From contig CBDFLJ010000001.1 in the NCBI GenBank assembly GCA_965248835.1, positions 1,440,001 through 1,504,000 on the forward strand: 64,000 nt of DNA. The letters run 5' to 3'. Numbering within the stretch: the stretch's first letter is position 1; every line of letters starts with the position of its first letter. Shown one piece after another: positions 87-15,920 of this stretch. The DNA is from Alphaproteobacteria bacterium. GTDB lineage: Bacteria; Pseudomonadota; Alphaproteobacteria; MPNO01. Under the pieces are notes generated by a model, which worked only from the letters and a program-made list of their open reading frames with translations, searched no databases and was not told where the DNA came from. A program made the translations under genes and the position numbers.

Positions 87-1133
87 ATGAACCAGGGACC
101 GCGCGGGCCGGCGGCCCGGTCTTCCGGCGCCGGCCGGCCGCCGATCGGGCCGCGCTATCAGCCGCGCCCGCTGCTTAAGCCCTCCGACGGGTTCGGCCGC
201 GGCGCGGCCGCGATCACCGGCGGACGCAAGGACATCCTGTGCGCCATCGGCATCGATGTCGATGCGGTGGCCGGCTGGCTCGGCTCCTATGGCGGGGAGA
301 ACTCGCCGTGCGACATCTCGCGCGGGATGTTCTCCGGCGAGGTCGGCACGCCGCGCCTGGTCAGGCTGTTCGACCGGCTTGGCCTGCGCACCACCTGGTT
401 CATCCCCGGCCATTCGATCGAGACCTTCCCCGTGCAATGCCGCATGGTGGTCGATGCCGGCCATGAGATCGGCATGCACGGCTACAGCCACGAGAACCCG
501 ATCGCCATGACGCCGGAGCAGGAAGAGGCGGTCATGGACAAGTGCATCGCGCTGATCGAGCGGCTGTGCGGGCGCCGGCCGACCGGCTATGTCGCGCCGT
601 GGTGGGAGTTCAGCCCGGTCACCAACGAGCTCCTGCTCAAGAAAGGCATCAAGTACGACCACAGCCTGATGAACGACGACTTCCACCCGTTCTACGTCCG
701 GGTCGGCGATAGCTGGACGCTCATCGACTACGCGCAGCACCCCGATGCGTGGATGAAGCCGTTGGTACGCGGCGAAGAGACCGACCTGATCGACATCCCC
801 GGCAACTGGTACCTCGACGACCTGCCGCCGATGATGTTCATCAAGTCGGCACCCAATAGCTTCGGTTTCATCAACCCGCGCGACATCGAGGAGCTCTGGC
901 GCGACCAGTTCGACTGGGTCTACCGCGAGTACGACTACGCGGTGTTCACGATCACCATACACCCCGACGTCTCGGGCCGGCCGCAGGTGCTCGCCATGCT
1001 GGAGCGGGTCTATGAGCACATCGCGGGGCACACCGGCGTGCGGTTCTGCACCTTCGATGAGATCGCCGAGGATTTCCGCGTACGCTACCCGCGCGACCAG
1101 GCCGCCCGGCCGCATTCCGAGACCGCCGCATAG
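87..1133 (+). CDS. Polysaccharide deacetylase (CE4, HpPgdA/PuuE-like) family hydrolase
   Basis: Motifs [55 protein letters not shown]; GGAGG upstream of ATG 87. Confidence 0.85.
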
Positions 1134-1147
1134 CGGCGGCAGCGGCG

Positions 1148-1480
1148 ATGTGCAGCCTCTGCGGGGTCCTCGGCGGGCGGATCCATTGGAGCGAGGCCGC
1201 CAGCGCGCCCGAGGCCTTCGTCAGCCGGAAGGACCCGGTGACCCGACGGCGCGAGCGCCAGAACCGGACCCGTATCGCCAACGCGGTCCTCGAAGAGTAC
1301 GGCCTGGTGCTGTCCGAATGGGCGGGACCGTCCTACGTGCTTGCCAGCCGCACCGGCAGGACCACGCTGGTCGACAATTTGACCGAGCTGTGGGCCGCGG
1401 CGGAAAAGCTCGCCCGCCGGCCGTGCGATCCGCTCGATGATCGCCTGATTGCCGCTCTGGAGCGCCGCGGCGGTGGCTGA
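1148..1480 (+). CDS. Small hypothetical protein with N-terminal CxxC (MCSLCG) and C-terminal CDPLD
   Basis: 110 aa ORF 14 nt after the deacetylase stop, overlapping the start of the next gene; globular composition unlike the shadow ORFs. Confidence 0.75.
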   Translation: MCSLCGVLGGRIHWSEAASAPEAFVSRKDPVTRRRERQNRTRIANAVLEEYGLVLSEWAGPSYVLASRTGRTTLVDNLTELWAAAEKLARRPCDPLDDRLIAALERRGGG

Positions 1481-2486
1481 GCCGGCGGTGCCGATCCCGG
1501 TCAACGTGCTGACCGGCTTCCTCGGCAGCGGCAAGACGACGCTGCTGCGGCGCATGCTGGCCGCTCCGGGCATGGGCGAGACCGCGGTGCTAATCAACGA
1601 GTTCGGCGAGGTCGGTCTCGACCATCACCTGATCGAGCACGCGACCGAGAGCACGCTGGTGCTGGAGAACGGCTGCGTGTGCTGCGCCATGCGCGGTGAT
1701 CTGCAGGCCGCCCTGCGCGACCTGCTGTCGCGCCGCGACCGCGGCCAGGTGCCGTATTTCCGGAAGGTCGTCATCGAGACCTCGGGCCTCGCCGATCCGG
1801 TGCCGATCATCTACACCGTGACCGCCGAGCCGGTCATCCGGCACCATTTCCGTATCGGCTCGGTTCTGACGGTCGTCGATGCGGTGAACGGGGCGGCACA
1901 GCTCGACCGGTTCCCGGAATCGGTCAAGCAAGTCGCGGTCGCCGACCGCATCCTTGTCACCAAAACCGACCTTGCGGGCCAAGAGCGGGGGCCGTCCTTG
2001 CGGGCGGTGCTGGGCCGGATCAATTCGGCCTGCGAGATCATCGATTGCACCGAGGTGTTGCCGGCAATCGAGGATCTGCTGGCCGATGGGGCGGCGGTGC
2101 GAGAGTGGGTGAACGGGGCGGCGGCGGCCGATCACGCCCATGCAAGCGGGGTCAGCTCATTCACGATGTGGTTCGACGGCGCGCTCGATTGGACGGCCTT
2201 CGGCATCTGGCTCACCATGCTGCTCAACCGCCACGGCGAGGCGGTGCTCCGCGTCAAGGGCATGCTCAACGTGGCGGGGGTGGCCGATCCCGTGCTGATC
2301 AACGGCGTCCAGCACCTTGTGCACCCGCCGGCCCACCTTGCAAGCTGGCCGGACGAAGACCGGCGCTCGCGGATCGTCTTCATCGTCCGCGATATCGACG
2401 AGGCGCGGATCAGACGATCGCTGGAAGCGTTCAACGCGCTGGCCGCCCGGCGGCCGGGCGATCGGGCTGCTATGCCGGAGGGTTAG
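1473..2486 (+). CDS. COG0523/CobW family G3E GTPase metallochaperone
   Basis: Walker A TGFLGSGKTT, INEFGEVGLDH, GCVCC, ETSGLADP, C-terminal LRVKG..GVQH; GTG 1473 overlaps the upstream stop. Confidence 0.92.
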   Translation: MAEPAVPIPVNVLTGFLGSGKTTLLRRMLAAPGMGETAVLINEFGEVGLDHHLIEHATESTLVLENGCVCCAMRGDLQAALRDLLSRRDRGQVPYFRKVVIETSGLADPVPIIYTVTAEPVIRHHFRIGSVLTVVDAVNGAAQLDRFPESVKQVAVADRILVTKTDLAGQERGPSLRAVLGRINSACEIIDCTEVLPAIEDLLADGAAVREWVNGAAAADHAHASGVSSFTMWFDGALDWTAFGIWLTMLLNRHGEAVLRVKGMLNVAGVADPVLINGVQHLVHPPAHLASWPDEDRRSRIVFIVRDIDEARIRRSLEAFNALAARRPGDRAAMPEG

Positions 2487-3003
2487 CCCGCCCGCCGTTG
2501 TCCCGCAGGCGGCCGTGGCTCGGGCGCCAGCCGGTGCGGAAGGCGCCTACCAATCGATGCAGCAAATAGAACGCGATCGCCAGTAGAATCAGGACGATGA
2601 TCTTCAGGACCAGCCCGCCGAAGATCGGGTCCAGCGTGGCGCCCCGGCTGATCAGGTGCTCGATCAGCATCACCAGCGCCTGCAGGGTCGCGCCGGCGCA
2701 GACGATCACCGCGATCAGGATGGCGATCTGCAGCGTATCGAAGACCAGGCCCTCGGCCCCGAGATCGCCGGTCGCGCGGACGATGTTGTGGCGAAGCGAC
2801 TGCCAGTGGGCGATCACATAGCCGATCAGCCCGACCACGGCAGCGAACCAGAACACGATGTTGGAGGCCCGGACGTCGTCGACGCCGCCGGCGATGAAGG
2901 CCTCAAACGGCTGGTAGAAATAGAGGAACACCAGCACCACCACCAGCCCGGCGGGGACGATCCACAAAAACGGTCTTCTGGGTGAATCGGTGTCGGTGCT
3001 CAT
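2470..3003 (-). CDS. Orphan integral membrane protein, about 4 TM (paralog of 15967-16428)
   Basis: Four long hydrophobic stretches; ATG at 3003 (MSTDTDS); motif-level similarity to 15967-16428. Confidence 0.75.
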   Translation of the reverse strand: MSTDTDSPRRPFLWIVPAGLVVVLVFLYFYQPFEAFIAGGVDDVRASNIVFWFAAVVGLIGYVIAHWQSLRHNIVRATGDLGAEGLVFDTLQIAILIAVIVCAGATLQALVMLIEHLISRGATLDPIFGGLVLKIIVLILLAIAFYLLHRLVGAFRTGWRPSHGRLRDNGGRANPPA

Positions 3004-3077
3004 TGCCCGGCCGGGTCGTCGCCTCGATGACGTCAGCCTATACCAACGCACCCCGCCGCGTCGACCGGCGGACTCCG

Positions 3078-3106
3078 TTGACCACCTGTGACAGGTGGTA
3101 GATCAT
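3078..3106 (+). promoter_or_regulatory. Putative sigma70 promoter (TTGACC-N17-GATCAT) overlapped by perfect palindrome ACCACCTGT-G-ACAGGTGGT (candidate operator)
   Basis: 9-bp perfect inverted repeat at 3081-3089/3091-3099 in the divergent intergenic region upstream of hyuA. Confidence 0.55.
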
Positions 3107-3163
3107 TGAAAGCGAGGCGAAGAACCGGTGATCGGGCCGAAAACGGCGTCTTTGGAACGGGTC

Positions 3164-5221
3164 ATGACAGCGCGTCTTGGTATCGATGTCGGCGGCACTT
3201 TCACCGATCTGTTGCTGTTCGACGACGATTCGGGCGCGATGCACTTCCTCAAGACGCCGTCCACGCCGCACGATCAGTCGATCGGCATCCTGACCGGAAT
3301 CGAGAAGATCCTCGCGGAGTCCGGCATGGCGCCGGCGGACATCCGCGGGCTGCTCCACGGCACCACGGTCTCGACCAATATCGTCCTGGAAGAAAAGGGC
3401 GCGAAGGTCGGCCTGCTGGTGACCGAGAACTTCGAACAGGTCCTCCACCTCGCCCGGTCGCAGACGCCGGGACCGCTTGCGGGCTGGATCACCATGATCA
3501 AGCCCGAGCCGCTGGCCGATCTGGCGCTGACCCGCGGCATCGCCGAGCGGATCAACGCCCGCGGCCAGGTTCTCAAGCCGCTGGAGGAGGAAAGCGCCCG
3601 CGCGGCGGTCCGCGAATTGATCGATCAGGGCGTGGAATCGATCACCATCTCGCTGTTGCACTCCTACGCCAATCCGAGCCACGAGCAGCGCCTGAAAGCG
3701 ATTGCGGAGAGCTTCGACGCGGGACTCCCGCTGTCGCTGTCCTCGGAGATCCTGCCCGAGTTCCGCGAGTACGAGCGCACATTGGTCACGGTCATGAACG
3801 CCTATGTCGGACCCAGCATGCGGAACTATCTGCGGCAGTTCGAAGACAAGCTGCGCGGCATCGCGTTCTCGCCCAAGGTCAACATCGTGCGCTCCGACGG
3901 CGGGCTGATGAGCGTTGCCCGCGCCTCGGAATCGCCGGTGCACACGATGCTGTCCGGGCCGGCGGGCGGAGTCTCCGGAGCTGCGTTCGTCTCGACGATC
4001 GCCGGCCAGACCGATGCGCTGGGCTTCGACATGGGCGGCACGTCGACCGACGTCTCGCTGATCCAGAACGGCCGGCCGACGATCTCGCGCCAGACCACGC
4101 TCGGCTACTATCCGGTCAAGGTGCCCTCGGTCGAGGTCCACAGCGTCGGCGCCGGCGGCGGCTCGATCGCCCATGTGCCGATGACCGGCGCGCTGCGCGT
4201 CGGGCCGGAGAGCGCCGGCGCGGTGCCGGGTCCGGCCTGCTATGGGCGCGGCGGCACCGAGCCCACGGTGACCGATGCCAACGTCGTCCTCGGACGGCTG
4301 CCGCCGATGCTGCTGGGCGGGGAGATGAGACTCGACGTCAACGCCGCCGAGGAGGCGGTCACCAAGGTCGCCCGCGCTCTCGGGCTCGATCCGCTGCAGG
4401 CGGCCCAGGGCATCCTCGACATCGTCAACGAGAACATGTTCGGCGCCCTTCGCCTGGTCACCGTGCAGAAGGGTTTCGACCCGCGCGATTTTGCGCTGGT
4501 CGCCTTCGGCGGGGCGGGTCCGCTGCACGGCAACGCGATCGCCATGCTGGCCGGGTGCTATCCGGTCATTGTGCCGGCCACGCCCGGCGTGCTGTCCGCG
4601 TTGGGCTTTCTGTATTCCGACGTGAAGAACGAGTTCGCCCAGACCTTCATCCGCAACATCGTCGATGCGCAACCCGGCGAGGTCGCCGAGGTGCTCGGCC
4701 GTCTCGGCGGCGAGGCGCGCGGATGGCTGGCCGAGGAGGGTGTGCCGCCGGACGGCCAGGACGTCCATTTCGAGGTCGACGTCCGGTATTTCCGCCAGGG
4801 CTACGAGGTCTCGCTCGAGGTCGCGCCCGACGGGCTCGGCGCCGAGGCGCTGGCCGACATCGGCCGCCGGTTCGGCGCCGTGCACGAGCGGCTCTACGGG
4901 TTCAAGCTGGAGACGCTGGTCGAGCTGGTCAATCTGCGCGCGGTCGGCGTCGGCCGCGTGCCGAAGGTCGATATCCCGCGCTTCGAACACGAGGGCGAGG
5001 ACGCATCGGCCGCCGTCGTCGACCAGCACCGGGTCTATATCGACAACGGCTTCGTCGCGTCGAAGATCTACGACCGCATCCTGCTCCGAGCGGGCAACGT
5101 CATCGCCGGCCCGGCCGTGGTCCAGCAGAAGGATTCAACGACGTTGATCCACCCCGGCCATGTCGGCGTAGTCGATGCGTTTCTGAACATCGTCATTCGT
5201 CCCGAGGCGATGAATGCGTAG
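3164..5221 (+). CDS. hyuA: Hydantoinase/oxoprolinase subunit A (ATP-dependent, HyuA/OplA family)
   Basis: GIDVGGTFTD, HGTTVSTN, EFREYER, SGPAGG, DMGGTSTD, GAGGGSIA, GPESAGA.PGPACYGRGG, FGGAGPLH. Confidence 0.95.
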   Translation: MTARLGIDVGGTFTDLLLFDDDSGAMHFLKTPSTPHDQSIGILTGIEKILAESGMAPADIRGLLHGTTVSTNIVLEEKGAKVGLLVTENFEQVLHLARSQTPGPLAGWITMIKPEPLADLALTRGIAERINARGQVLKPLEEESARAAVRELIDQGVESITISLLHSYANPSHEQRLKAIAESFDAGLPLSLSSEILPEFREYERTLVTVMNAYVGPSMRNYLRQFEDKLRGIAFSPKVNIVRSDGGLMSVARASESPVHTMLSGPAGGVSGAAFVSTIAGQTDALGFDMGGTSTDVSLIQNGRPTISRQTTLGYYPVKVPSVEVHSVGAGGGSIAHVPMTGALRVGPESAGAVPGPACYGRGGTEPTVTDANVVLGRLPPMLLGGEMRLDVNAAEEAVTKVARALGLDPLQAAQGILDIVNENMFGALRLVTVQKGFDPRDFALVAFGGAGPLHGNAIAMLAGCYPVIVPATPGVLSALGFLYSDVKNEFAQTFIRNIVDAQPGEVAEVLGRLGGEARGWLAEEGVPPDGQDVHFEVDVRYFRQGYEVSLEVAPDGLGAEALADIGRRFGAVHERLYGFKLETLVELVNLRAVGVGRVPKVDIPRFEHEGEDASAAVVDQHRVYIDNGFVASKIYDRILLRAGNVIAGPAVVQQKDSTTLIHPGHVGVVDAFLNIVIRPEAMNA

Positions 5222-5241
5222 ATCAAGGAGATCCTTCCGCG

Positions 5242-7542
5242 ATGACTGAGACATGGCGCACCGCCGGGTCGGTTTCGTTCGACGAGCTGTTGAAGGCCAA
5301 CAAGAAACAGTTCGATGAGGTCTTCTCGGTCCAGATGAAGGCGTTCGGGCTGCGCGAAGCTTCCGGCCTGCCGCCGACCGCGGACGCCCTCGGCTCGGCG
5401 AGCCTGGAGGCGAGCAACGGCGCGCCGAACGGCGAGGCGACGGCCAGGCTCAATGCCCGTTTCGGGACGGGCTGGTCGAGCGAGATCGTCGAACACAGCA
5501 TCGACCAGGGCAAGGTCAGCGTGTTGTGCAAGCTCGTGGTCGAGGGTACGACCAGGATGCAGTTCGGCTCGGCCCGGGTGAACGGCGATGCGGGCGCTGC
5601 GCTGCAGCGCGCGACCGAAGAAGCCCTCGAAAAATGCGCCGCTCAGTTCGACGCCGTCCTATCGGCTCTCGAAGGCGAAGACCGCGCGCCGGTGCCGGCC
5701 GAGCCCGCCGAGCCCGCCGCGGCCGCCTCACCGGCGCCGGCGGCAGCGCGGCGCGGCACGGGATCGCGGCTGGATACGATCACGCTGGATCTGATCGAGA
5801 ACGCGCTGCGCAACGCGCGCCACGAGATGGATGCGGTGCTGTTCCGCTCCGCCATGTCGCCGGTCATCCGCGAGCAGCATGACGAGTTCCCGATGCTGAC
5901 CGACGCCAAGGGGCGGATGATCGTCGGCCAGTTCGGCTCCTACGTCCCGGAGATGCTGAAGGAACAGAGCTTCGACCTCTTTCCGGGCGACGTGATCCTG
6001 CAAAGCGATCCGTACAAATGCGGCGGCGCGATCAGCCACATCAACGACTGGATGGTCCTGGTCCCGATCTTCTTCGACGGTGATCTGGTCGGATTCAGCT
6101 CCATGTTCGGCCACATGATGGATGTCGGCGGCCCGGTGCCGGGCAGCATGCCGACCGCCGCGACCTCGATCTTCGGCGAGGGGCTCAGGATTCCGCCGAT
6201 CAAGATCTACGAGCGCGGCGAGGTGAACAAATCCGCGATCGATCTGATCATGAACAACACCCGCACGCCGGAGATGAACTACTCCGACCTGATGGCGATC
6301 GTCGCCGGCTGCCGTGCCGGCGAGCGCCGGGTGGTCGAGATGTGCGAACGCTTCGGCCAGGAGGTCTACAAGCAGGCCTGCGAGGCGTTGCTCGAGCGCA
6401 CCAACCGGGCGATGCGCCAACTCATCGTCCGCAACCTGCCCGAGGAGCCTCAGTCGTTCGAGGACTATGTCGACGACGATGGGCTCGGCAACGGGCCCTT
6501 CAGGATGAAGCTCACCGTCTGGCGTGAAGGGGAGCATGCCTATTTCGACTGGACCGGCACCTCGGCGCAGGCGCCGGGCCCGATCAACTTCTACCTCCAT
6601 GACGGCATGTTCAAGATGTTCATCGGCGTCTACATGATCATGGTCTTCGACCCCCAGATCCTGTTCAACGACGGGTTCTATGACCTGATCCACGTCACGA
6701 TTCCGGACGGCTCGCTGCTGCATCCGAAGTTCCCGGCGGCGCTGGGCTGCCGCACCCACGCTCTGTCGCGCCAGTTCGACGTCCTGGGCGGGGCGCTTTC
6801 GAAGAACGCGCCGGAGATGGCGACCGCGGCCGGCTACGGCTCCAGCCCGCATTTCCTCTATTCCGGGCGCGACGCCAAGGGACGGGACTTCCAGCTCATG
6901 GAGATCCTCTATGGCGGCATCCCGGGGCGCCCGATCGGCGACGGTATGGACGGCCATTCGTGGTGGCCGCTGTTCGAGAACATCCCCAGCGAGTATCTCG
7001 AGAGCTACTACCCGATGGTGATCGAATCCTATGCCAGCGTTCCCGACTCGGGCGGGGCCGGGCTGCACCGCGGCGGCAATGGCATCGAGAAGGTCTATCT
7101 GCTTCTGGAAGGCGGCGAGATTTCCATCCACGACGACCGCCATTTGACCCAGCCGTGGGGGATCCTGGGCGGCAAGCCGGGCGCGTGCTCGCAGAAATGG
7201 CTGGTCCGGGCCGACGGCACGCGCGAGCCGCTGCCATCGAAGATCGACAACGTGCGGGTGCAGGGCGGCGACCGCATCGTGTTCCGCACCGCCGGCGGCG
7301 GAGGTTGGGGCGACCCGCTGGACCGCGCGCCCGAGAAGATCGCTACCGACGTGCGGCGCAAGCTGCTTACGCGCGAGGCGGCGCGCGAGCGCTACGGCGT
7401 GGTCCTGGGCGAGCGGGGCACGTCCGATATCAAGGCGACCGAGGCGTTGCGCGCAAGCCTGCGCTCCAGCCGCCGGCCGCCGGAGACGTTCGACTTCGGC
7501 GACCGCCCCGAAGGAATCGCGAACGGGGTGATCACCGTTTGA
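5242..7542 (+). CDS. hyuB: Hydantoinase/oxoprolinase subunit B (HyuB/OplB family) with ~175-aa N-terminal extension containing a Rad52/22-like domain
   Basis: AAGGAG then ATG 5242; core motifs SPVIREQHD, SDPY..SHINDW, GHMMDVGG.VPGS, EGLRIPP, DSGGAG..RGG, GGGGWGDP begin after about aa 177. Confidence 0.93.
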   Translation: MTETWRTAGSVSFDELLKANKKQFDEVFSVQMKAFGLREASGLPPTADALGSASLEASNGAPNGEATARLNARFGTGWSSEIVEHSIDQGKVSVLCKLVVEGTTRMQFGSARVNGDAGAALQRATEEALEKCAAQFDAVLSALEGEDRAPVPAEPAEPAAAASPAPAAARRGTGSRLDTITLDLIENALRNARHEMDAVLFRSAMSPVIREQHDEFPMLTDAKGRMIVGQFGSYVPEMLKEQSFDLFPGDVILQSDPYKCGGAISHINDWMVLVPIFFDGDLVGFSSMFGHMMDVGGPVPGSMPTAATSIFGEGLRIPPIKIYERGEVNKSAIDLIMNNTRTPEMNYSDLMAIVAGCRAGERRVVEMCERFGQEVYKQACEALLERTNRAMRQLIVRNLPEEPQSFEDYVDDDGLGNGPFRMKLTVWREGEHAYFDWTGTSAQAPGPINFYLHDGMFKMFIGVYMIMVFDPQILFNDGFYDLIHVTIPDGSLLHPKFPAALGCRTHALSRQFDVLGGALSKNAPEMATAAGYGSSPHFLYSGRDAKGRDFQLMEILYGGIPGRPIGDGMDGHSWWPLFENIPSEYLESYYPMVIESYASVPDSGGAGLHRGGNGIEKVYLLLEGGEISIHDDRHLTQPWGILGGKPGACSQKWLVRADGTREPLPSKIDNVRVQGGDRIVFRTAGGGGWGDPLDRAPEKIATDVRRKLLTREAARERYGVVLGERGTSDIKATEALRASLRSSRRPPETFDFGDRPEGIANGVITV

Positions 7543-7573: not shown

Positions 7574-10066
7574 ATGCTGGAGTCCGTAATCATCGCACTC
7601 GTCGTCGCGGTCGTCGTCATCGCGATCGTCTATATCCTGTCGGTGTGGATCTACAAGCGCGCGCCGGCGAACATGGGCTTCGTGCGCACCGGGATGCTCG
7701 GCACCAAGGTGTGCCTGGGCCGCGGTGCGATCGTCCTGCCGGTCTTTCACGAGGTCACGTGGGTCTCGCTGGAGACGATCAAGCTGATCGTCAGCCGCGC
7801 GCGCGAGCAGGCCGTTCTGACCTCCGACAAGATCCGGATCGACGTCGTGGCCGAGCTCTACGCCCATGTCGGCCGGACTCCCGAGGATCTGCTGACCGCG
7901 AGCCGGAGCCTGGGGGAAAAGACATTCGATCCCGACAAGGTCCGCAACCTCCTGGAGGCCAAGGTCGTCAGCGTGTTGAGGAGCTATGCCGCCACCAAGA
8001 CGCTCAGCGAGCTGCACGAGAACCGCGAGGCCATCTCGCGCGAGATGAAGGCCGCGGTCATGGAGAGCTTCCAGGCCAACGGGCTGACGCTCGAGGAAGT
8101 CACGATCGCGGCCCTGGAACAGACCGCGAAGGAGCATTTCAAGCCCGACAACGTCTTCGATGCCGAGGGCCTGAAAATCATCACCGACATCACCTCGGAT
8201 GCCCGCCGCAAGGTCCACGAGACCGAAAAGCGGACCGCGGTCGCGATCCGCCAGCGCGACCTCGACACCCAGCTCGATCTCCTGGAGATCGAAAAGAACG
8301 AAGCGCTCGCCAAGGCGGGTCAGGACAAGACGATCTCCAACGAACAGGCCCAGCAGCTTCGCGAGAAGCAGATCTTCATCCTCGACCAACGCAAGGCGGT
8401 TGAGGAGCGCGAGATCGAGAACGACGTTACCCTGGAGCGCATGCGGACCGACCGCGAGGTCGCGATCACCGAGGAGGCGCAAAAGCGCGAGGTGACCGAG
8501 ATCCAAAAGGAGCTTGCGCTGGAGCAGGAACGCAAGGACCGCGAGATCCAGCTCATCAACAAGGAACGCGAGCGCGAGGCGGCCGAGATCCAGCAGCGCA
8601 CCGCCGTGCTGGCCGAACAGGAGGTCGCCCGCGTGCTGCGCCACCAGGCGAGCGAGGACGCCACCGTCGCCACCCGCAAGCAGAGCGTCGAGGCGCGGCT
8701 GACCGTCCTCGATCTCGAAAAGCAGGAGGAGCTCGCCGCGGCCGGGCAGGAGCGCGACGTCGCCAACGAGAAGGCCCGCGCGCTCAGCGAGCGCCAGCGC
8801 TACATCCTGGAACAGCGCTGGGAGGTCCAGCAGGACGAGATCGACAAGGCCCTGGCACTCGACCGCGCGCAGATCCAGAAAGACGCGGCGGTGGCCGAAG
8901 AGAGCAAGATCCTGGAGGCCGCCGAGGTCCGCCGCGCGCTCGCGCTCGAGCTTGAGGAACGCGACCGCGAGATCGCCCTGATCAGGAAGGAGCAGGAACG
9001 CGAGAAGATCGACATCCAGCGGTTCCTGGGACGCGAGAGGGAGGAGCGCGACCGCGAGATCGCCCTTGTCCGCAAGACCGGAGAGCTCGAGGCGGTCGAG
9101 GTCGAGCGGCTGAAAACGACCGCAGAGAAGGAAAACGCCGAGCACGGCGTGGAGTCGGTGCGCATCCTCGCCGATGCCGAGCGGGACAAGGCGATCGAGC
9201 GCATCGAGGCCGAGAAGCTTGCCGAGGTCCGTCGGATCGACGAGGAGAACAAGGCGCAGATCTCGCGTATGCACATGATCACCCAGGCCGAGGCCCGGCA
9301 GACCTCGGCCGAGCGCGAGGCCGAGGCCACGCTGATCAAGGCGCGCGCCAACAGCGATGCGCAGAAGGTCGCGGCCGAGGGCATCGAGAAGGAGGCCGCG
9401 GCCCCGGGCCGCGCCGAGATGGCGGTCGAATCGCTGCGGGTGGAGAACACCCAGCGCATGCTCGAAGCCGAAGCGACCGGCATCGAGGCCAAGGCCGATG
9501 CGCTCAAGAAGTACAACGAGGCTGCGACCTTCCTGGAGCTGGCCAAGATGTATATCGAGGCCGAGCGCGATGTTCATATCGACCAGGCCAAGGCGATGGG
9601 CACCGCGCTCGGTGGCGCGCAGATCCGCATGTACGGCGGCGGCGACGGCACGGTGGAGACGATCCGCGGCATGTTCACCTCCGGCTTCGGCCTGGGCGAG
9701 GCGCTTGAGGGGCTTGGCCAGTCGATGCCCGAGGGGCTGCGCGAGCGGCTGTCCGCGCAGGGCCTCCGCGGCCTCCTCGGCCTGGCGCCGGGCGAGGCAA
9801 AGCCCGATGTCGAACGGACGCTGCAAAAGACCGTCCAACGGCTCGATGCACTGGCCGCCAAGTCGCTGCGCGGCCAGAAGGCGCGCGCGATGCCGCTGTC
9901 CGAAGCGCTCGCCAAGCTCGAACAGCAGGCCAGCGGCGACGACGAAGCGATTCGGGCCGTCAACACGCTCAAGGGCATGAACCCCGAAGGCGCCTTCGAT
10001 GACCTGCCTTTCGACAAGGTGTGGGCGCTGCTTCAGAGCGTGGCGCAGGCGCCCAGCCAGGCTTGA
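7574..10066 (+). CDS. SPFH/band-7 flotillin-like protein (YqiK/FloT-like) with a greatly elongated, internally repeated coiled coil
   Basis: N-terminal TM helix, YKRA..NMGFVRTG..G.KV...GAIVLPVFH, SPFH core, NVFDAEG, E/R/K/A-rich region of about 450 aa, AEA..IEAKA.AL. Confidence 0.9.
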   Translation: MLESVIIALVVAVVVIAIVYILSVWIYKRAPANMGFVRTGMLGTKVCLGRGAIVLPVFHEVTWVSLETIKLIVSRAREQAVLTSDKIRIDVVAELYAHVGRTPEDLLTASRSLGEKTFDPDKVRNLLEAKVVSVLRSYAATKTLSELHENREAISREMKAAVMESFQANGLTLEEVTIAALEQTAKEHFKPDNVFDAEGLKIITDITSDARRKVHETEKRTAVAIRQRDLDTQLDLLEIEKNEALAKAGQDKTISNEQAQQLREKQIFILDQRKAVEEREIENDVTLERMRTDREVAITEEAQKREVTEIQKELALEQERKDREIQLINKEREREAAEIQQRTAVLAEQEVARVLRHQASEDATVATRKQSVEARLTVLDLEKQEELAAAGQERDVANEKARALSERQRYILEQRWEVQQDEIDKALALDRAQIQKDAAVAEESKILEAAEVRRALALELEERDREIALIRKEQEREKIDIQRFLGREREERDREIALVRKTGELEAVEVERLKTTAEKENAEHGVESVRILADAERDKAIERIEAEKLAEVRRIDEENKAQISRMHMITQAEARQTSAEREAEATLIKARANSDAQKVAAEGIEKEAAAPGRAEMAVESLRVENTQRMLEAEATGIEAKADALKKYNEAATFLELAKMYIEAERDVHIDQAKAMGTALGGAQIRMYGGGDGTVETIRGMFTSGFGLGEALEGLGQSMPEGLRERLSAQGLRGLLGLAPGEAKPDVERTLQKTVQRLDALAAKSLRGQKARAMPLSEALAKLEQQASGDDEAIRAVNTLKGMNPEGAFDDLPFDKVWALLQSVAQAPSQA
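8237..9088 (+). repeat. Protein-level tandem duplication (142-aa / 426-nt period) with a 29-aa DRE(I/V) sub-period inside the flotillin coiled coil
   Basis: AVAIRQ (8237) vs TVATRK (8663); DREIQLINKERERE (8537) vs DREIALIRKEQERE (8963); DRE codons at 8450/8537 and 8963/9050 are each 87 nt apart. Confidence 0.8.
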
Positions 10067-10078
10067 GGCGGGGCTGCG

Positions 10079-11164
10079 GTGGCCGAGAACGACGTCGTCC
10101 TGGTCGGGGTGAACAAGACCTTCGAGGGCAATGTCCGCGCGGTGATCGATTTCAACGCCGAGATCGAGCACGGCGAGTTCGTTGCCTTGCTGGGTCCTAG
10201 CGGTTGCGGCAAGACGACCACGCTCAGAATGATCGGCGGGCTGGAGGAGATCACTTCGGGCAAGATCTACCTCTCCGGCAGGGACGTCACCGATCTGCCC
10301 CCGTCCGAGCGCGACACCGCGATGATGTTCCAGAGCTTTGCCCTGTTCCCGCATCGCACCGTCTTCCAGAACGTCGAGTTCAGCCTGAAGATGCAGGGCC
10401 GCGCGCGCGCTGATCGGGCCAAGCCGGTCTGGGACATGTTGGAGATGGTGGGTCTCGCCGATCTCGCCGGCCGCAAGCCGTCCGACCTCAGCGGCGGGCA
10501 GCAGCAGCGCGTGGCGCTGGCCCGGGCGCTGATCAGCCGGCCGACGGTGCTGCTGCTCGACGAGCCGCTGGGCGCGCTCGACTACAACTTGCGCCAGACG
10601 ATGATCGTCGAGCTGAAGAAGATCCAGCGCGAGCTCGGCATGACCTTCATCATGGTCACCCATTCCCAGGAAGAAGCCATGGGCATGGCCGACAAGGTGA
10701 TCGTGATGAGTGACGCGGTGATCCAGCAGACCGGCACCTCGCGCCAGATCTACGAGAACCCGCGCACCCGCTTCGTTGCCGAGTTCATCGGCAACAACAA
10801 CCTGTTCGCCGGCAAGGTCGCCTCGCGCAGCGGCTCGGTCGTCTTCGTCGAGGCCGAGGACAAGCTGTTCTACGTCAGGGTGCCCGAGCACATCCGCCAG
10901 GTCCCGGTCGGGGCCACGGCCAGTTTTGCGGTGCGCGCGGATCTGATGCATGCCGGCGATCACCCCGGGATGGCAAACCGGGTCGAGGGCCGCTACATCA
11001 CCACCGAGTTCCGGGGCTCGCTGGAGACCGACGTCTTCGAAGTCGGCTCGGGGCTGTTCGTCCACGTCGAGCAGCACCGCAACATCTCCGACCGGATCTA
11101 CGCGATGGGCGACCGCGAGACGATCTGCTGGCCGGCGGACGGCGGCGTTCTGCTGGAGGCCTGA
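10079..11164 (+). CDS. ABC transporter ATP-binding protein, PotA-like
   Basis: GPSGCGKTT, FQSFALFPH, LSGGQQQRVALARAL, LLLDEPLGALD, VTHSQEEA, C-terminal TOBE-like region. Confidence 0.95.
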   Translation: MAENDVVLVGVNKTFEGNVRAVIDFNAEIEHGEFVALLGPSGCGKTTTLRMIGGLEEITSGKIYLSGRDVTDLPPSERDTAMMFQSFALFPHRTVFQNVEFSLKMQGRARADRAKPVWDMLEMVGLADLAGRKPSDLSGGQQQRVALARALISRPTVLLLDEPLGALDYNLRQTMIVELKKIQRELGMTFIMVTHSQEEAMGMADKVIVMSDAVIQQTGTSRQIYENPRTRFVAEFIGNNNLFAGKVASRSGSVVFVEAEDKLFYVRVPEHIRQVPVGATASFAVRADLMHAGDHPGMANRVEGRYITTEFRGSLETDVFEVGSGLFVHVEQHRNISDRIYAMGDRETICWPADGGVLLEA

Positions 11165-14385: not shown

Positions 14386-14486
14386 TTGAGCCTCCATCTT
14401 ATCCGAGACGATTAGGACATTTTCTGAACCCTCTGACAATATGGGCCGGCAAAAAGGATTTTGGGAAAGCGGCCTGGGAGGTGCGG

Positions 14487-15920
14487 GTGAGCGTATTGAT
14501 CAAGGGCGGCAGGATCGTCACCGCAGCCGATGACTACCATGCCGACATCTTCGCGGCCGACGCCACGGTGAGCCTGATCGGCACCGACCTGACGATTGAG
14601 GCCGATGAGGTGATCGATGCGGCGGGGAAGCTGGTCATCCCGGGCGGCGTCGATCCGCACACCCATCTCGAGCTTCCCTTCGGCGGCACGACGACCTCGG
14701 ACACCTTCGAGTCCGGCACCCGGGCGGCGGCGTTCGGCGGCACGACCTGCATCGTCGACTTCGCCGTCCAGTCGCGCGGTATTTCAATGCTGGAATCGCT
14801 CGATAGCTGGCATGCCAAGGCCGCCGGCAAGACCGCGATCGACTACGGCTTCCACATGATCGTTACCGACCTGCCCGAGGAGCGGGTGCCGGAGATGCGC
14901 CGCCTGTCGGACGAGGGGATCACCAGCTACAAGCTGTTCATGGCCTATCCCGGGGCGCTGCTGTCCGATGACGGGACGATCTTCCGGGCGATGCGCAAGG
15001 CCGGCCAGGACGGCACCCTGGTCTGCATGCACGCCGAGAACGGCATCGTGATCGACGAGCTGATCAGGATCGCGCTGGCCGAGGGCCATATCGAGCCCAA
15101 ATACCACGCGGTCACGCGTCCGACCCGGCTGGAGGCCGAAGGCACTCACCGCGCGCTCGCGATCGCCGAGGTCGCACGCGCGCCGGTCTATATCGTCCAC
15201 CTCAGCGCCTTTGACGCGCTCAAGGAACTGCGCGATGCCCAGGCACGCGGCGTGATGGCCCACGCCGAGACCTGCCCGCAATACCTGCTGCTGGACGTCG
15301 GCGCCTATGACGAGCCCGGCTTCGACGGCGCGAAATACGTGCTGACCCCGCCGCTGCGCGAGAAATGGAACCAGGACGAGCTGTGGCGCGGACTGCGGAG
15401 CGGCGATCTGCACGTGATCTCGACCGACCATTGCCCGTTCTGCCTCAAGGAGCAGAAGGAGCTGGGCCTGGACGATTTCTCCAAGATCCCCAACGGCGGG
15501 CCGGGCATCGAGAACCGGATGAGCCTGATCTATCACAACGGCGTCGGCGAGGGCCGGATCACCCTCAACAAGTTTGTCGAGCTGACCTCGACCGCGCCGG
15601 CCAGGATCTTCGGACTGTTCCCGCGCAAGGGCACCATCGCGGTGGGCTCGGACGCCGATATCGTCATCTTCGATCCCGACCGGTCGGAGACCATCAGCGT
15701 CCACAACCCGCGGACCCACCACATGAACATCGACTACAGCGCCTACGAAGGCTTCACGGTCAAGGGCTATACCGAGACCGTGATCTCACGCGGCAAGATC
15801 ATCGTCGACAAGGGCGCGTATGTCGGCCGGCCGGGCGATGGGATGTTCATCAAGCGCGGCCCCTATGGCGGGCTCTACGCCGCGCAGACCTCGCGCGCCG
15901 CGCGCGAGCGCTCCGCCTGA
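14487..15920 (+). CDS. hydA: Dihydropyrimidinase / D-hydantoinase
   Basis: PGGVDPHTH, GGTTCIVDF, SYKLFMAY (carbamylated Lys), HAENG, HAETCPQYL, STDHCPF, KIPNG.PGIE.R. Confidence 0.95.
   Translation: MSVLIKGGRIVTAADDYHADIFAADATVSLIGTDLTIEADEVIDAAGKLVIPGGVDPHTHLELPFGGTTTSDTFESGTRAAAFGGTTCIVDFAVQSRGISMLESLDSWHAKAAGKTAIDYGFHMIVTDLPEERVPEMRRLSDEGITSYKLFMAYPGALLSDDGTIFRAMRKAGQDGTLVCMHAENGIVIDELIRIALAEGHIEPKYHAVTRPTRLEAEGTHRALAIAEVARAPVYIVHLSAFDALKELRDAQARGVMAHAETCPQYLLLDVGAYDEPGFDGAKYVLTPPLREKWNQDELWRGLRSGDLHVISTDHCPFCLKEQKELGLDDFSKIPNGGPGIENRMSLIYHNGVGEGRITLNKFVELTSTAPARIFGLFPRKGTIAVGSDADIVIFDPDRSETISVHNPRTHHMNIDYSAYEGFTVKGYTETVISRGKIIVDKGAYVGRPGDGMFIKRGPYGGLYAAQTSRAARERSA

Follow-up and report, generated by a model that had tools for sequence, protein, structure and literature searches.

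A Stripped-Down Rad52/22-Superfamily Core Fused to a HyuB-Type Amidohydrolase Subunit in Alphaproteobacteria

Introduction

Rad52-type annealing proteins serve recombination and repair in phages, bacteria, mitochondria and nuclei. What, then, is a Rad52 core doing as a conserved part of a catabolic enzyme? The question is raised by a gene of 766 codons (positions 5242..7542, + strand) in a 64,000-nucleotide stretch of the genome of an Alphaproteobacteria bacterium (NCBI GenBank assembly GCA_965248835.1, contig CBDFLJ010000001.1, positions 1,440,001 to 1,504,000 of the forward strand). We call this whole stretch "the window," and coordinates refer to it unless another locus is named. The gene encodes a Rad52-like N-terminal domain (N-domain), a Pro/Ala linker and the body of a hydantoinase B (HyuB) subunit. 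We find that the N-domain belongs to the Rad52 superfamily as a real offshoot with non-DNA surroundings, and that it most likely serves as an exapted assembly or scaffold module and not as a recombinase.

Results

Membership in the Rad52/22 Superfamily

The catalytic body is defined by Pfam Hydantoinase_B (PF02538, Hydantoinase_B/oxoprolinase), which matches residues 178-692 (5773..7317, +) at E 8.8e-150 and over its entire profile (1-519 of 519). Ahead of it lies the Rad52/22-like core (residues 64-141; 5431..5664, +), delimited by Pfam, AlphaFold2 (AF2), Foldseek, hhalign and substitution rates. The Pfam family Rad52_Rad22 (PF04098) aligns residues 64-140 with positions 35-130 of its 153-position hidden Markov model (HMM), scoring 24.6 bits with residues 1-176 alone and 20.9 bits with the whole protein, where the curated cut-off is 20.3. 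We ran a profile built from 25 N-domains without a word index against 1.84 billion representative proteins and retrieved 492 of them at E <= 1e-3; one retrieved class comprises proteins of 175-320 aa that match profile positions 60-136 at E 1e-13 to 1e-8 and contain Rad52_Rad22 (PF04098) at 35-65 bits in all 10 tested. When the N-domain profile was aligned by hhalign with a profile of 34 canonical bacterial Rad52_Rad22 proteins, the probability was 99.8 and the E-value 1.7e-29 over 78 columns, with the motifs LNxxFGxxWSxEVVEH, KMQFG and DALxxCAxxFG common to both. The canonical profile itself matches yeast Rad52 (3e-7) and human RAD52 (2e-6).

The AF2 model of the core has a predicted local distance difference test (pLDDT) of 83-91 and consists of a helix (64-74), three strands (78-88, 91-100 and 103-112) and a second helix (117-141), that is, a predicted alpha-beta-beta-beta-alpha core made of alpha2, beta3-beta5 and alpha3. 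Its top Foldseek matches in the PDB are human RAD52 (2e-4 to 1e-3), Mgm101 (root-mean-square deviation 2.6 A over 76 columns) and yeast Rad52; in BFVD they are phage proteins named Rad52/59/22, Sak3 and ERF. A language-model atlas, consulted for leads only, returned viral hypothetical proteins, PF04098, Sak and Mgm101 at 0.86-0.90. Structures of double-stranded RNA-binding domains (dsRBDs) rank below RAD52 and Mgm101, from E 5e-3, and no dsRBD family appeared among the Pfam matches at E <= 10; a dsRBD identity was rejected on both counts.

Other candidates were set aside as well. In the PDB profile search, designed armadillo-repeat proteins owed their place to summed weak repeats and, like uL23 (E 1.4), were deemed spurious; matches of the Ala-rich helix-linker stretch to Rz/Rz1 spanins in NCBIfam and PHROGs (E 2e-4 to 1.6e-3, below cut-off) were judged compositional. 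A single-sequence phmmer search with residues 1-176 against the PDB gave nothing meaningful. Because the profile search, hhalign and the AF2 model with Foldseek agree as independent lines, we consider membership settled: by these comparisons the N-domain is a true Rad52/22-superfamily core, stripped down, and goes beyond a generic dsRBD-like fold.

The comparison with known members shows what has been removed. Canonical Rad52_Rad22 proteins (~175-320 aa) have alpha2, beta3-beta5 and alpha3 in common with the fused domain, but they start with a hairpin region (consensus PFxPxxIKxRxGxxGxxLxYVE) that a helix and a disordered linker replace in the fused domain, and they end in C-terminal tails of their own where the fused domain continues into the HyuB enzyme. 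The human RAD52 N-domain and yeast Mgm101 (PDB 1KN0, 5XRZ, 8RJW and 9YI9) are the best structural matches, over 76-107 columns, although sequence identity is only 15-22%; unlike them, the fused domain has no hairpin, no C-terminal lobes or helices past alpha3 and no RPA/RAD51-type tail.

Start Site and Coding Evidence

Could the likeness instead be a chance resemblance in DNA that is not translated, with the true start of hyuB near 5770? The frame is open far upstream in this GC-rich DNA: a 1484-aa open frame (3088-7542, +) traverses the whole of hyuA in the hyuB frame, an artefact of GC-richness that could mislead gene callers on the start of hyuB. Since the DNA is GC-rich and the frame open as far as 3088, open frames alone say little. 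The 766-aa frame opens at ATG 5242 and ends at 7542 in the window sequence, 20 nt after the hyuA stop codon (5219-5221) and 11 nt after a Shine-Dalgarno-like AAGGAG (5225..5230, +) that we read from the sequence.

With residues 1-176 as the query, 54 proteins were found (including the window's own; 527-792 aa, E 1e-26 to 1e-44), all containing Hydantoinase_B and 44-63% identical over the N-terminal part. Across the 51 fused homologs that were aligned, M1 and 23 further N-domain positions are invariant, among them L16, F24, G75, W78, E84, H85, V94, L98, M106-S110, G115, A120, L121, A124, A128, L129 and C132. The GC content at third codon positions (GC3) in the fused-gene frame is 0.86, and the ratio of nonsynonymous to synonymous substitution rates (dN/dS) of the core is 0.22-0.26 (~0.24) against four orthologous loci, at synonymous sites near saturation; by these figures the N-domain is under purifying selection. 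The shared extension, the invariant positions, GC3, dN/dS and the hhalign match all speak against an artefact, the chance of which we put at practically nil; judged from the sequence comparisons, this explanation is already refuted, and the N-terminal part is real, conserved coding sequence and no stray leader.

The sequence-only reading of this locus, which had a Rad52/22-like domain fused to the N-terminus of HyuB through a Pro/Ala linker, is thus borne out by Pfam, hhalign and Foldseek, and the linker is as it described. Neither of the outcomes that it named as fatal was found, i.e., a resemblance to dsRBD-like folds alone or a start near 5770 with an unconserved upstream part, and the same fusion, which it suggested seeking elsewhere, recurs in the 54 proteins. 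The peptide that it quoted is present exactly, running from A68 to F136 (nt 5443-5649), so its starting point of about residue 65 was three residues early.

Loss of DNA-Binding Features

The core of single-strand annealing proteins (SSAPs) consists of helices alpha2 and alpha3 flanked by the beta3-beta5 sheet and the beta1-beta2 hairpin, as outlined in PMC13110880. According to the account in PMC6137706, K152, R153 and R156 of human RAD52 bind backbone phosphates of single-stranded DNA (ssDNA), and the bases lie sandwiched between hairpin residues R55 and V63. The beta1-beta2 hairpin, the outer wall of the ssDNA groove and the base wedge, was not found in the fused domain; we conclude that it is missing because the matches begin at position 35 of the Pfam HMM and at column 36 of the canonical profile. 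In the model its place is taken by a conserved helix (residues ~10-35) and a variable, low-confidence linker.

The basic residues of alpha3 have changed too. Human residues were mapped through hhalign of the fused with the canonical profile and of the canonical profile with human RAD52. All 34 canonical proteins have K or R at three alpha3 positions, and the fused domain has lost those lysines: the K144 equivalent, K in 34/34 canonical proteins, is Q in 22/25 and R in 3/25 fused domains, and the K152 and R153 equivalents, basic in 34/34 canonical proteins, are basic in 10/25 and 18/25 fused domains, respectively. The R156 equivalent is A, E or D in 23/25 fused domains, a position that is non-basic in most bacterial canonical proteins as well. 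Counted from the N-terminus through the helix end, fused proteins have a mean net charge of -3.8 and canonical ones of -0.2. The earlier view of the ssDNA-binding features as degenerate therefore agrees with what we see, the hairpin being absent and the conserved lysines replaced.

Does the module nevertheless still bind nucleic acid (ssDNA or RNA), for operon autoregulation, for localisation or for action on damaged bases? It is a true Rad52-family core, dsRBDs are among its weaker structural matches, and basic residues persist on alpha3: R123, next to the lost lysine, is R in 21/25 fused domains, and together with the often basic R153 equivalent it could let some phosphate contacts survive. 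Core net charge, moreover, does not separate the two groups (-0.9 fused, -1.4 canonical). These points argue against a complete loss, and we infer the loss of DNA binding rather than assert it because R123 could partly compensate and core charge does not discriminate. On the other side stand a lysine that is invariant in the canonical proteins and occurs in 0/25 fused domains, the K152 equivalent that most fused domains no longer keep basic, the acidic N-terminus-to-helix stretch, and conserved neighbours that are all small-molecule hydrolases, a GTPase, membrane-associated proteins and transport proteins. We regard continued nucleic-acid binding as distinctly unlikely. Nothing found here supports its most specific form, the nucleic-acid-linked salvage of damaged bases proposed earlier; the genes around it are for transport and small-molecule amidohydrolases.

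A further idea, a metal site formed by E84, H85, C96 and C132, was considered because a CobW-type GTPase gene lies nearby in the cluster. It was set aside: the alpha3 Cys is common in canonical relatives too (25/34), H85 is replaced by R in most of the stand-alone forms described below, and the Cys on the corresponding Mgm101 helix are buried core residues in the structural description given in PMC13110880.

Predicted Self-Association and the Favored Explanation

In Mgm101, nearly all parts of the monomer save the hairpin and the C-lobe form the ring interface, as PMC13110880 describes it. The parts kept in the fused domain are those that build the ring interface in RAD52/Mgm101, and the parts removed are those that hold DNA. 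When four copies of the N-domain were modelled together, the interface score ipSAE was 0.42, 0.42 and 0.53, vs 0.05 for the best of three controls; the ipSAE mark was reached by 20/30 proteins solved as one-chain pairs and by 1/23 solved as single chains. Between the four-copy runs at least 43% of contacts agree, and partner pLDDT is at least 59. In the predicted interface, residues 76-82 and 116-125 of one copy meet the invariant MQFGS strand (103-110) of its neighbour, so that the domain would associate through its sheet edges and alpha3, which we liken to the RAD52/Mgm101 ring. Self-association of the N-domain is thus supported in silico, and the oligomerisation or docking role suggested before is plausible on these models.

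The explanation that we propose is as follows. The N-terminal 140 residues descend from a Rad52/22 SSAP core, of which alpha2, beta3-beta5 and alpha3 are kept; the beta1-beta2 hairpin and the conserved helix lysines have been lost and a conserved N-terminal helix gained. To judge from these substitutions the module most likely no longer anneals DNA, and the models suggest that side-by-side self-association, an ancestral property of the fold, was probably kept. It would then act as an assembly hub for an ATP-dependent HyuA/HyuB amidohydrolase encoded in a conserved cyclic amide/ureide cluster. A self-associating assembly module without DNA function is the explanation we favor, and we hold it at about an even chance.

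Several observations weigh against this explanation. PF04098 is reached at E <= 0.01 in just 5 of 51 fused homologs (whole proteins), so the Pfam match taken alone is borderline; a whole-genome PF04098 scan of the organism's own genome gave nothing, missing even this domain, and the 25-N-domain profile returned no RAD52 chain from the PDB sequences. Solved RAD52 rings that the model remembers may have shaped the complex score, and the job, unlike the calibration, ran with four copies and an alignment of our own. Finally, the solved HyuAB-type (alpha-beta)2 assemblies covered in PMC8453981 need no such module.

The N-Terminal Helix, the Linkers and Relatives of the Module

The core is framed by two variable segments and one conserved one. 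The N-terminal helix (residues ~10-35; 5269..5346, +; consensus VSLDDLLKANKxQFDxIF), seen in the alignment, in AF2 and in hhalign, has L16 and F24 invariant and S12, D14, D15, L17, K21, Q23 and D25 at least 90% conserved; AF2 draws it at 13-34 with pLDDT ~57-62. The linker behind it (residues ~36-63; 5347..5430, +) varies in length and sequence in the alignment and is of low confidence in the model (pLDDT <50 for 33-63). Between core and enzyme, the Pro/Ala-rich flexible linker (residues ~142-177; 5665..5772, +; ~30-35 residues), identified from the alignment and the sequence, also varies in length and sequence among orthologs. Such a variable tether suggests a mobile connection between hub and catalytic body, presumably comparable to the linkers of 2-oxoacid dehydrogenase E2 chains.

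The distribution is patchy: 19/401 genomes in a class sample and, with the N-domain profile, 0/400 other genomes in a phylum sample; the relatives that carry names are alphaproteobacterial metagenome-assembled genomes (MAGs). A single-sequence query, which is less sensitive than the family profile, matched 0/40 relatives, a zero that we call insensitive because the query missed the organism's own stand-alone paralog that the family profile found. The fusion is kept even where HyuB orthologs have fallen to 44-48% identity in the core.

A more distant HyuB paralog (~29% core identity; L036:1-1689, - strand, also L034 and L035) has a Rad52-like core at its very N-terminus. This core matches canonical Rad52 proteins at hhalign E 2.8e-14; the N-terminal helix is lacking, and a Pro/Ala-rich linker of ~80 residues comes after the core. 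Rad52-like N-termini may therefore be more widespread among HyuB proteins than the 54 close matches suggest.

Among the profile matches there were also stand-alone proteins of 140-190 aa, built of helix, linker and core like the fused N-domain and ending right after the last helix. They match the fused N-domain at an hhalign probability of 100 (E 5.8e-39, 135 columns) and share with it the N-terminal helix, the disordered linker and a beta-rich core ending in an ALxKC helix; unlike the HyuB fusion they are separate genes tied to an isochorismatase-family gene, and most carry an insertion, which in the model of the own-genome copy is an extra beta-hairpin. Pfam matches were lacking in 9 of the 10 tested. 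The stand-alone copy directly follows the isochorismatase-family gene in 12/13 genomes, usually beside the same cluster. At three MAG loci (L003:1-720, L004:1-663 and L006:1-723, all - strand), a second HyuA paralog (36-39% identity) starts ~500 nt past the stand-alone gene and runs in the same direction.

The organism's own stand-alone paralog, P0204 (175 aa; C1:44885-45409, - strand), lies 1.4 Mb from the window and has no Pfam or NCBIfam match. In its operon, an isochorismatase-family gene (RutB/BiuH-like, below cut-offs) comes first and overlaps P0204 with its end; behind P0204 come a luciferase-like monooxygenase (of the MsnO8 family of luciferase-like oxidoreductases) and an FAA-hydrolase-family gene. 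The P0204 model shows the shared core with the extra hairpin added (pLDDT 77.5) and has no significant match in the PDB, the best being a RAD52 chain at E 0.038; direct hhalign of P0204 with canonical Rad52 is weak (probability 84, 40 columns).

In a quick-search tree of the core (78 columns), fused, stand-alone and canonical proteins each fall on one side of a branch (Shimodaira-Hasegawa-like approximate likelihood ratio test support 96, 93 and 94, respectively). The tree holds 77 of 96 rows; of the 19 left out, 2 had no HMM hit and 17 matched at fewer than 50 positions, the latter being for the most part stand-alone proteins that the insertion breaks up. It leaves the order of the groups, and whether fused and stand-alone forms are sisters, unsettled, and the distant HyuB paralog sits on a long branch of unsure placement.

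A second explanation is that the module, or its helix, serves hetero-docking in place of homo-oligomerisation and would recruit HyuAB to one particular partner. This partner may be the flotillin-like SPFH protein of the adjacent downstream gene or the stand-alone paralog, in a mixed ring, with its isochorismatase-family neighbour. The helix is conserved in both fused and stand-alone forms and absent from canonical Rad52 proteins, the stand-alone paralog has the same layout and its regular place after the isochorismatase-family gene, and the flotillin-like gene follows, and a gene for a 193-aa protein diverges from, the HyuAB pair at 20/20 loci. We treat this as a possibility, if a doubtful one. 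Eight class-sample genomes have the fused form and no detected stand-alone copy, and at four loci the isochorismatase gene is there and the small gene behind it is not, so a mixed ring is not obligatory; the distant HyuB paralog carries the core without the helix; the own-genome stand-alone copy is 1.4 Mb away in its monooxygenase/FAA-hydrolase operon; and gene neighbourhood by itself is weak evidence for contact.

The Gene Cluster

The surroundings of the fused gene are metabolic in nature, not related to DNA: small-molecule hydrolases, a GTPase, and membrane-associated and transport proteins. Immediately upstream is the ATP-binding partner, a hyuA-type subunit of 697 aa (3128..5221, +) with Hydantoinase_A (2e-95), Hydant_A_N and Hydant_A_C; it scores 518 bits with the NCBIfam CapA model, under the 1000-bit cut-off. 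Divergent from hyuA is the gene for the 193-aa protein (2470..3051, -), which has no Pfam or NCBIfam match and whose hydrophobic stretches suggest a membrane protein. Downstream come the flotillin-like SPFH/Band 7 protein (830 aa; 7574..10066, +; Pfam Band_7 1e-15) and, directly after it, the ATPase of an ATP-binding cassette (ABC) transporter (10079..11164, +; ABC_tran). The order 193-aa protein (divergent), HyuA, Rad52N-HyuB, flotillin-like protein and ABC ATPase is the same in 20/20 loci (19 fetched loci and the window).

A polysaccharide-deacetylase-fold hydrolase (87..1133, +; Polysacc_deac_1 1e-16) is present in 19/20 loci and is distantly PuuE-allantoinase-like (TIGR03212, 76 bits, below cut-off); a CobW/COG0523-type GTPase, a possible metal chaperone (1449..2486, +; Pfam cobW and CobW_C), is present in 18/20, and an isochorismatase-family gene in 15/20. 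In the window, the cluster closes with a dihydropyrimidinase/D-hydantoinase (14481..15920, +; TIGR02033, 601 bits, cut-off 393). Because the deacetylase-fold hydrolase, the CobW GTPase and the dihydropyrimidinase occur together, cyclic ureide/amide catabolism seems a fitting role, and the annotations point to a cluster for the uptake and breakdown of cyclic amides or ureides.

The flotillin-like protein, which has a long, repetitive region rich in Glu, Ala, Arg and Lys, is 53-67% identical even where HyuA/HyuB are down to 37-48%. Several genes at the MAG loci L006 and L004:1742-2429 (isochorismatase, deacetylase, HyuB, flotillin and ABC genes) came out as two or more tblastn pieces each, in different frames, which looks like assembly frameshifts and not biology.

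Like the HyuB/CapB subunits of hydantoinases, caprolactamase and 5-oxoprolinase (PDB 6YRA), the fused protein has a full PF02538 domain and a HyuA-type gene adjacent upstream. With the CapB equivalog model NF050157, however, it scores 254 bits (cut-off 1000), and the characterised HyuB/CapB subunits, as far as the description in PMC8453981 extends, are 564-594 aa long and have no such N-terminal module. The same source gives HyuAB-type relatives as (alpha-beta)2, (alpha-beta-gamma)2 or larger, and because of these larger forms added subunits are not foreign to the HyuAB family.

Might the module act on its own enzyme, as a lid, as an allosteric or stabilising domain or as a substitute for a third subunit, with no higher-order assembly? 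As surveyed in PMC8453981, an (alpha-beta-gamma)2 make-up is known from acetone carboxylase, and gamma and epsilon subunits from acetophenone carboxylase; the module itself is found both fused and as a separate small gene, as subunits often are. A Pro/Ala tether so long and variable, however, fits poorly with a fixed intramolecular position, the own-genome stand-alone copy adjoins no hyuA or hyuB, and no Pfam match to the acetone carboxylase gamma family was seen at E <= 10. On balance we find such a role improbable.

The favored assembly module can also be extended into a metabolic scaffold, in which homo- or mixed Rad52-like rings gather HyuAB copies into a membrane-proximal metabolon that breaks down cyclic amides or ureides. 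One ring module would be fused to HyuB via a swinging Pro/Ala arm and the other would be the free small protein made with the isochorismatase-family amidase; the rings would gather the ring-opening enzymes, and perhaps the next amidase, beside a flotillin-organised ABC importer. This larger scheme we consider unlikely.

Discussion

The fusion described here appears to have gone without comment. Full-text literature searches, mostly reaching articles outside subscription journals and without supplements, found no report that joins Rad52 with hydantoinase or flotillin with hydantoinase, and nothing relevant came up in a broader search for fusions of Rad52 or annealing domains to metabolic enzymes. 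Databases hold the architecture all the same, since one homolog, P0050, already carries a precomputed PF04098 label. In annotation, a Rad52_Rad22 match on such proteins should not be taken to indicate a recombinase.

It is unusual to find an SPFH scaffold linked with a soluble amidohydrolase and an ABC importer, and the cluster with its flotillin-like gene, conserved in 20/20 loci, is a place to look for enzyme organisation at bacterial membranes. Should the module have retained self-assembly, we would have here a clear example of a nucleic-acid fold turned to use as a protein scaffold, and the HyuAB/oxoprolinase/carboxylase family would gain a new level of quaternary structure; the module would also offer a natural minimal Rad52 core in which ring assembly can be studied apart from DNA binding.

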